From positions 37,272-101,271 of the forward strand of contig JBGFRI010000005.1 in the NCBI GenBank assembly GCA_041695225.1: a DNA stretch of 64,000 nt, written 5' to 3'. Made by a program: the position numbers and the translations under genes. Position 1 is the first letter of the stretch. The number at the start of each line of letters is the position of its first letter. Positions 61,960-62,388 of the stretch are shown here, piece after piece. This DNA is from Deinococcota bacterium (GTDB lineage: Bacteria > Deinococcota > Deinococci > Deinococcales > Thermaceae). Under the pieces are notes generated by a model, which was given only the letters and a program-made list of their open reading frames with translations, made no database searches and was not told where the DNA came from.

Positions 61960-62388
61960 GGCGCCTCCCAGTTGTCCAGGCGCAGACCTGCAATTCGCAC
62001 GAACTCTCGCTGGTTGCGGGAGACCAGTACCAGGTTACGGCTTTGCCGGAATCGCGTAAGCGACTCGCCTAAGGTCGTGGGCTCTGGCAGTCGCGGCGAT
62101 CCACAGGTCGTTAGGCCCTATCGGTGTGCCCTGGCGCTCGAGGTCGGCCCGAACCATGCCGTATACCTCGGCTACGGTAGTGTCTACTTCAAAAACCGGT
62201 ACTTCGCTGCGTAGAACCTCCAGGCGCCCCAGGTTGGCTTCGACCCGCTGGCTCTTTCTGGCGCCGTAGTACAGCTCGCCCAGACTGACGCTGCTAATTC
62301 CGATTTGCGGCTCGGATTGAACGCGCAGCACCAGCGCCAGAACGCCCTTCAGGTACCCAATCCAGACGCTGGTATCGAGCAGGTACAC
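61956..62388 (-). pseudogene. vapC: VapC PIN-domain toxin interrupted by a 40-nt insertion
   Basis: YLLDTSVWI, IGPNDLWIAATA; deleting 62032-62071 restores HDL-VLVSRNQREFVRIAGLRLDNWEAP-stop (130 aa). Confidence 0.88.
62032..62071 (-). mobile_element. 40-nt element, copy 2 (inside vapC)
   Basis: Exact reverse complement of 36390-36429. Confidence 0.88.

Follow-up and report, generated by a model that had tools for sequence, protein, structure and literature searches.

The 64,000-nt stretch analyzed here (the window) lies on contig C22 of a Meiothermus metagenome-assembled genome (MAG) of 2.83 Mb (50 contigs, 92% complete, 59.6% G+C). It carries a vapC toxin gene that is interrupted by a 40-nt sequence, TAGGCGAGTCGCTTACGCGATTCCGGCAAAGCCGTAACCT. 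As an earlier reading made from the letters alone (the sequence-only reading) had pointed out, this 40-mer occurs in identical form at positions 36390-36429 (+) and 62032-62071 (-), while shuffles of the window contained no match to it at up to three mismatches. The truncated vapC open reading frame (ORF) stops at a TAA within the element. Excision of the 40 nt joins this 117-amino-acid ORF to ...AHDLVLVSRNQREFVRIAGLRLDNWEAP*, and the resulting 130-amino-acid protein matches VapC models over positions 1 to 129. The predicted restoration of the gene by exact removal is thus borne out.

The restored VapC is 98%, 98%, and 92% identical to public 130-amino-acid proteins. Two of these homologues are encoded on JGI metagenome contigs with the same gene order, 97 to 99% and 91 to 95% identical to the window, and there vapC is present as the empty allele ...CACGACCTGGTRCTGG... 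(L054/L063 and L055) that the sequence-only reading had proposed to look for. Over 20,885 nt, the window itself matches JGI contig Ga0484002_000133 with 100% identity. In at least seven SRA runs, Logan contigs break inside the element at the intergenic copy, and a contig of one run (L066) does so at vapC, as is expected when a multicopy repeat is assembled by de Bruijn graph. The insertion in vapC is therefore genuine and recent, occurs as a natural polymorphism, and is among the newest of its family. It shortens VapC by 25 residues, so that the toxin is very probably inactive.

A search of the whole genome at up to three mismatches returned 41 matches to the 40-mer (19 forward, 22 reverse; 20 exact), while the reversed pattern returned none. 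BLAST recovered 43 full-length copies, and one copy is nested inside another (C34:61472/61497). The main family consequently comprises about 45 near-identical units dispersed in one Meiothermus genome, with both orientations equally common, and its core ranks among the most common 14-mers in a k-mer survey of the genome. The unit is 41 nt long and reads (T/G)-AGGCGAGTCGCTTACGCGATTCCGGCAAAGCCGTAACCT-(A). Inside the unit, the bases hardly vary (at least 38 of 41 copies agree), and the 39-nt core AGG...CCT is identical in 28 copies. Variation is concentrated at position 1 (T in 30 copies, G in 10, C in 1; ten copies start GAGG) and at position 41, the base following the 40-mer (A in 36, C in 4, G in 3). 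The ends are exact at more than 40 sites, without 5' truncations or tails.

Outside this genome, the unit is rare. Among 24 other Meiothermus species and 16 genomes of the same order, copies were found in only four Meiothermus genomes, with one to three copies each. Exact matches to a 21-nt core in approximately 186,000 species genomes were limited to Meiothermus/Thermaceae MAGs, except for three matches confined to the 21-mer itself. A metagenome scan with the same core yielded just five stretches and no full-length partner element, collections of plasmids and phages gave chance partial matches or none, and the papers searched contained nothing on such repeats in Thermaceae. The sister species G017, which is approximately 80% identical in the compared flanks, has three copies, all at sites orthologous to copies in the present genome; the remaining approximately 40 copies are therefore gains of this lineage. 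With 28 identical cores here against zero to three copies in the 24 other Meiothermus species, the main family has expanded recently.

The description of a very small, nonautonomous mobile element in the sequence-only reading agrees with the multiple copies, the nested copy, and the empty orthologous sites of the sister species. The recent activity that it deduced from the identity of two copies is upheld by the identical cores and by near-identical strains in which vapC is free of the element. Neither of the findings that it named as fatal was obtained: copies are not limited to two and no chimera was seen, and the vapC genes of relatives do not contain the 40 nt. That the units form a mobile family with a recent insertion in vapC is, on this evidence, very likely.

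To define the inserted string, the joined flanks of all 43 copies were searched in G017, and ten orthologous regions were aligned, of which eight were informative. All eight show a net gain of 41 nt in the present genome. At four sites (C32, C14, C29, and C38:35268) the flanks are conserved up to the joint, leaving no ambiguity in the inserted string; at C32, for example, CTCCAC|GAGG..CCTA|CTGT corresponds to CTCCAC|CTGT in G017. The 40-nt unit of the sequence-only reading therefore falls one base short at every informative sister-species site (the extra base is usually A), while its length holds as the net gain at vapC. There, ACCT on both sides makes the placement ambiguous by 4 nt, and the copy either lacks its 41st base or came with the loss of a single base of the target. 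Over both families described here and vapC, 15 empty-site comparisons show insertion without target-site duplication. The unit inserts seamlessly at unrelated sites, where exactly the unit is added and nothing is duplicated. These comparisons do not support the alternative that the 40-mer is an excision scar.

No target motif was detected. Every flank position carries less than 0.6 bit, the best being 0.58 bit for a C at position -1 (29 of 43 copies), and no tetranucleotide is associated with the sites on either strand. Apart from this mild excess of C before the unit, there is one of G after it (26 of 43). The CTAG-like junctions of the sequence-only reading are reduced to this weak flank bias, without any duplication. 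Neither TA nor CTAG is present at the empty sites in G017 or in the empty vapC alleles, so that the suggested link to insertion sequence (IS) families with such targets (IS5, IS701, IS630) also fails. Likewise, the sites do not favor a hairpin or palindrome, as the joined flanks fold at -7.1 kcal/mol compared with -7.4 kcal/mol for random genomic sites.

The internal hairpins noted earlier are recovered in the predicted fold of the main unit, in which GAGTCGC-TTAC-GCGATTC and CGGC-AAA-GCCG are closed by a short terminal stem, (C)TAGG/CCTA(G). Folded as RNA, the unit reaches -17.5 kcal/mol, with a z of -3.4; for DNA that includes a single flanking base at either end, z is about -2.3 to -2.5. 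The k-mer survey and a descriptor search of the genome (AGG, hairpin, hairpin, CCT) revealed exactly two multicopy families, the 41-nt main family and one other. The second family (sibling A) is a 42-nt unit, N-AGGGGGTGCGCGTAGCGCATACTCGCTATGCGAGTAACCT-N; this genome contains 10 copies and G017 has 5, and a search of the 24 other Meiothermus genomes gave none. Internally, it has no sequence relationship to the main unit; both have AGG at the start and GTAACCT at the end and fold into two hairpins (z = -3.3 for the second family). In all six of its empty-site comparisons, 42 nt were gained seamlessly. The two families have in common, judging from these folds, the predicted shape plus a few terminal bases (N-AGG...AACCT-N).

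Main-family copies are mostly intergenic and often lie just before or after genes; the copy at position 36390 lies upstream of an AP_endonuc_2-type gene, at a distance of 70 nt, and this gene precedes phnGHIJ. At least seven copies lie inside genes or ORFs, the interrupted genes being recognized by restoration of the ORF after removal of the 41 nt (Table 1). Three toxin genes of toxin-antitoxin pairs have been struck (vapC, PIN_3, and brnT), which fits the survival of insertions where loss of the gene does no harm. At vapC, the stop codon of the displaced 3' part overlaps the start of a downstream glycosyltransferase gene. The 72-amino-acid gene in the vapB position adjoins the PIN gene on all related contigs and gave no match in an NCBIfam search. 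The copy at C36:74382 directly precedes the ATG of a small basic protein, which looks like ribosomal protein Thx, and an AGGAG box is shifted 41 nt away from that start codon.

Table 1. Copies of the two repeat families in the window, the vapC locus, and genes interrupted elsewhere in the genome
Feature	Position	Strand	Remarks
Main-family copy 1	36390..36430	+	Full 41-nt unit, T + AGGCGAG...GTAACCT + A; exact match, unit length from empty-site alignments
Second-family copy	42699..42785	+	Split by a further 45-nt insert at 42720-42764; from sequence
Displaced 3' part of vapC, ...(L)VLVSRNQREFVRIAGLRLDNWEAP*	61956..62031	-	Now out of frame; from sequence
Main-family copy 2, within vapC	62032..62071	-	Exact match; net insertion of 40 nt
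Truncated vapC ORF, 117 aa, PIN domain	62035..62388	-	ORF list; annotated on the identical JGI contig as a PIN gene of 117 aa
Upstream 72-aa gene in antitoxin (vapB) position, intact	62388..62606	-	ORF list
PIN_3 gene, interrupted	C12:129824		ORF restored by 41-nt removal
BrnT toxin gene, interrupted	C39:4923		ORF restored by 41-nt removal
Two-domain rhodanese gene, interrupted	C38:35268		ORF restored by 41-nt removal
MFS transporter gene, interrupted	C7:33459		ORF restored by 41-nt removal
153-aa ORF, interrupted	C38:30987		ORF restored by 41-nt removal
CCA-adding enzyme gene, last 31 codons	C38:20452		ORF restored by 41-nt removal

None of the 43 main-family copies is read through by a coding-like frame. 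At least 5 of the 10 second-family copies are read through in frame, adding 14 residues (QGVRVAHTRYASNL or GYSHSEYALRAPP); one of these copies lies in dnaX (C37:4085-4124). Several of the read-through copies bear variants at the ends or internally that remove a stop (TAG to CAG or GAG; TAA to TAT), and the stop-removing variant at C1:31065 is shared with the sister species. The second-family copy in the window supplies the 3' end and stop codon of a metallophosphoesterase ORF and is also present in a 97.9%-identical strain.

Two of the three main-family sites shared with G017 are old intragenic insertions (the MFS gene and the 153-amino-acid ORF in Table 1; G017 loci L016 and L013), and after removal of the unit the ORFs are continuous in both species. 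Substitutions between the species are mostly synonymous on both sides of these insertions. In the 153-amino-acid ORF, the ratio of nonsynonymous to synonymous change (pN/pS) is 0.16 for one half and 0.32 for the other; for the 51 MFS codons downstream of the unit, it is 0.07, and the two other frames show no such pattern there. A GTG follows the unit within 0 to 1 nt at both sites. These regions are 95 to 96% identical between the species compared with approximately 80% elsewhere, and the MFS gene of the present genome has an additional 1-nt deletion. Ordinary explanations are recent exchange between lineages or genes split by termination and reinitiation. The interrupted genes may stay functional, either through reinitiation at the GTG, giving split proteins, or through skipping of the insert, for which there is no direct support. 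Ribosomal frameshifting through the main unit was rejected by reading the sequence at C7:33459 directly: a TAA lies inside the unit in the entry frame and a TAG at the exit in the frame needed.

Several other repeats occur together with or beside these units. A larger dispersed repeat of approximately 150 nt or more contains a hairpin, CCTCTCCCACC / GGGGAGAGG, and four main-family copies (C36:175251, C10:14763, C34:21318, and C44:28363) occupy the loop of this hairpin. As these four copies share the repeat and G017 has it without the 41 nt, the composite of repeat and unit has itself multiplied. A variant of the unit (...GTCGCTTACGCGATTCCGGCATAGCCGGAACCT...) forms head-to-tail arrays, with four 42-nt units at C23:473-640 and at least two units in L056 (FWPV01005389.1), and in another Meiothermus MAG (L022, L033, L034) a similar variant lies within a 130- to 160-nt repeat with the ends ATACC...GGTAT. 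Within the window, approximately 76 nt at 55729-55804 (GCGAGTGGCTTAGAGCC...CTTCCTTTAT) are missing from the 97.9%-identical strain L063, which makes this a second small insertion polymorphism, of a different kind; the stretch adjoins one copy of a further dispersed repeat (TGGATTGCTTCGTCGGC...). Short repeats are unusually abundant in the genome; among them are heptamer arrays and palindromes (GACCTGC, GACCTTC, GACCTGA) and a repeat of approximately 100 nt in 28 copies (...TGGATTGCTTCGTCGGCC...). The genome also holds three distinct CRISPR-like repeat families, and several IS ends terminate contigs.

The window contains no mobilizing enzyme, in agreement with the sequence-only reading, which had attributed mobility to an agent acting in trans. 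The genome has one Y1_Tnp gene. It reaches 145 bits against the IS200 model and 31.7 bits against REP_Tyr_transpos, for which the cutoff is 80; by these scores, its product is of the IS200/IS605 type and not a RAYT. It belongs to an apparently intact IS605-type element at C8:41400-43900, in which a 138-amino-acid TnpA, placed at C8:43106-43459, is followed by a 525-amino-acid tnpB product. The region holding this element has no match in four related genomes, and no main-family copy was found near the Y1_Tnp gene. Searches of the 92%-complete assembly detected neither an RVT_1 reverse transcriptase, for which control genomes gave matches, nor a MOB relaxase. A Y2_Tnp (IS91-type) search had no match here, nor in any of the control genomes. 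Leads toward a larger coding partner, namely, a 13-nt partial match at C34:38779 and the 130- to 160-nt repeats of the other MAG, led to none.

Most likely, recognition and movement of the unit in trans would involve a folded single strand of DNA. Its two hairpins and the short terminal stem would bring the ends of the unit together, and a strand transferase that recognizes structure, of the HUH/Y1 kind known from IS200/IS605 or REP/RAYT systems, might cut at both ends, probably release a small single-stranded circle, and reseal it into single-stranded target DNA. Transfer as folded single strands is suggested because the two families share only their shape, the termini are inverted over just 3 to 5 bp, nothing is duplicated, and a 41-bp duplex cannot loop or circularize. 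A single-stranded circle would account for the absent duplication and for the tandem 42-nt arrays of the variant; these arrays, seen in two genomes, fit a circular or rolling intermediate, but slippage can also make them. The assignment to an HUH-type enzyme is tentative and has a somewhat less than even chance of being correct. The resident IS605 TnpA, the sole such enzyme in the assembly, is a candidate partner.

A number of observations weigh against transfer of a folded single strand by an enzyme of this kind. The bare 41-mer folds as DNA no better than shuffles (z about -1.3), and the terminal inversion spans only 3 to 5 nt, giving a stem of 3 to 5 bp. Unlike ends of the IS608 type, the unit has two dissimilar hairpins, and the conserved 4- to 5-nt target that IS200/IS605 transposases require beside the left end is not seen. 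The joints are not perfectly uniform, as the vapC copy added 40 nt and not 41. No association between orientation and GC skew is seen, but on these contigs the skew is noisy. As for the enzyme, no RAYT was found, and of 26 Meiothermus genomes, 18 have Y1 transposases, with no relation to whether the element is present. The regions upstream of tnpA and downstream of tnpB share no 9-mer and by eye bear no convincing likeness to the unit, the boundaries of this IS being unmapped and the region absent from relatives. The true partner may lie in the unassembled 8% of the genome.

An undescribed enzyme or host pathway other than an HUH transposase, for example, a nuclease/ligase or a recombinase recognizing the two-hairpin junction, could act instead. 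The known duplication-free families all need a target, and none is seen for the 41-nt unit; moreover, no partner element has turned up, positions 1 and 41 are the least conserved of the unit, and one copy gained 40 nt rather than 41. As no positive evidence favors any specific enzyme of this sort, and a conventional partner may simply be missing from the assembly, we consider this explanation rather unlikely. The copies might also be a host-useful motif of the REP type (a terminator, an mRNA stabilizer, or a protein-binding site) spread by recombination or by capture of an abundant oligonucleotide at breaks, and so would not be transposable elements in a strict sense. Thermaceae are naturally competent, copies mainly occupy intergenic positions adjoining genes, the core is identical at 39 of 39 positions at two sites common to species that are otherwise approximately 80% identical, and the shared sites lie in 95 to 96% identical stretches that suggest recent exchange. 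However, vapC, brnT, PIN_3, and the rhodanese gene are broken by insertions, and copies lie within other copies and other repeats; homologous recombination cannot seed new sites with unrelated flanks, and the ends are exact at more than 40 sites. Spread of this kind is thus improbable.

The stable RNA fold (-17.5 kcal/mol, z = -3.4), together with the lack of duplication and target motif, is what a small structured RNA that is reverse transcribed and then inserted could leave behind. The assembly, however, contains no RVT_1 while control genomes matched, a search of Rfam 15 found nothing up to E = 10, and both ends are exact where 5' truncations and tails might have marked such copies, making an RNA-mediated element very improbable. 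There is still less to recommend a classical MITE (a miniature transposable element with inverted repeats) moved by a DDE transposase of a CTAG- or TA-target family (IS5, IS701, IS630). Many copies do read C-TAGG...CCTA-G, but the empty sites lack TA and CTAG, all 41 nt are gained, no more than 3 to 5 bp form the terminal inverted repeat, ten copies begin with GAGG, and 41 bp are too short to bring two bound ends together. Finally, as the genome is a MAG, an assembly or binning artifact was considered; its probability is negligible, as the unit is shorter than a read, the flanks are unique at every site, the same junctions appear in independent Logan assemblies of several SRA runs, and copies in other MAGs occupy orthologous sites.

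It is conceivable, though unlikely, that the two families represent a novel type of mobile DNA, namely, a structured single strand of minimal size that would insert seamlessly at essentially any site by means of an enzyme outside the known target-specific HUH transposases. If so, they would count among the smallest elements with exact ends. On the favored reading, too, the unit would be one of the smallest bacterial mobile elements with precisely delimited ends, caught in the middle of a burst and polymorphic between near-identical strains. It would unite features not known together from any described family, namely, the absence of duplication, the lack of a target motif, and shape-defined ends, and a second family with just terminal bases and fold in common makes the recognition rule narrow enough for oligonucleotide tests. 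The impact on the genome includes toxin genes probably knocked out, other genes truncated or split, and, for the 42-nt family, 14-residue inserts in proteins such as DnaX. The units also matter for annotation, as they account for frameshifted "pseudogenes" and contig breaks in Meiothermus MAGs.

The closest described systems resemble the unit in part. REP/REPIN sequences and their RAYT transposases (PMC3116915, PMC3337134, PMC3733652) fall into the same class of 20 to 40 nt, with hairpins, high copy number, nonautonomy, and no target duplication reported. For REPINs, recognition as single strands in a two-hairpin "clover" form has been proposed (PMC3116915). A REP is defined by a tetranucleotide, GTAG or CGTC, that is conserved at one end of its palindrome (PMC3733652); in contrast, the present unit ends in (T/G)AGG and CCT(A), with neither tetranucleotide at either end on either strand. 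Its hairpins are unrelated in sequence and do not form an inverted doublet such as replicates as a unit in the REP/REPIN systems, and its copies are singletons, the sole close pair of main-family copies being 66 nt apart in direct orientation. While REPs are extragenic and proteobacterial, with a RAYT usually flanked by the repeats, the unit is also intragenic, its host belongs to the Deinococcota, and no RAYT was found in the 92%-complete assembly.

Elements of the IS200/IS605 family move as single strands by the "peel and paste" activity of TnpA, and their miniature derivatives are known as PATEs (cited in PMC6006769). The unit resembles these miniatures in its seamless insertion and structure-defined ends, the mode is physically feasible for a very short element, and an apparently intact IS605 is present here. 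It differs in having no left-end target and dissimilar hairpins, and its length is only about half that of both minimal IS608 ends combined. Integron attC sites were also considered and rejected, as the 3' end CCGTAACCTA and its complement TAGGTTACGG, compared by eye, do not fit RYYYAAC/GTTRRRY beyond AAC/GTT.

Correia-type MITEs and the small noncoding repeats (SNRs) of Deinococcus radiodurans have long terminal inverted repeats, usually target duplications, and lengths of 60 to 215 bp or more. Like them, the unit is a nonautonomous dispersed repeat that spreads in bursts, and SNRs occur in the same phylum; however, a classical MITE has inverted repeats of at least about 10 bp plus a duplication, compared with 3 to 5 bp and no duplication here. 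Rickettsia palindromic elements (RPE) are approximately 100 to 150 bp long and lie in frame within protein genes. The 42-nt family, which is read in frame, is similar in this respect, while the 41-nt main family cannot be read through.

In 2008, Elhai (cited in PMC3116915 and PMC5861425) reportedly described small dispersed repeats (SDR) of 21 to 27 nt in Nostocaceae that form hairpins and for which mobility was said to be deduced from orthologous empty sites and nested copies, with the enzyme unknown. The likeness to the present unit extends to mobility far below 100 nt, hairpins, and the evidence from empty sites and nesting. For SDR5, insertion at HIP1 is reported (PMC5861425). In comparison, the unit is larger, has two hairpins and no target motif, and differs in phylum and sequence. 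As a descriptive class, SDR-like repeats are shorter than 50 nt, dispersed, and without coding capacity, with empty sites and nesting; the unit shows all of these features, though the class says little about mechanism. Overall, while none of the closest kinds matches all of its defining features, the unit is akin to very small nonautonomous mobile repeats.
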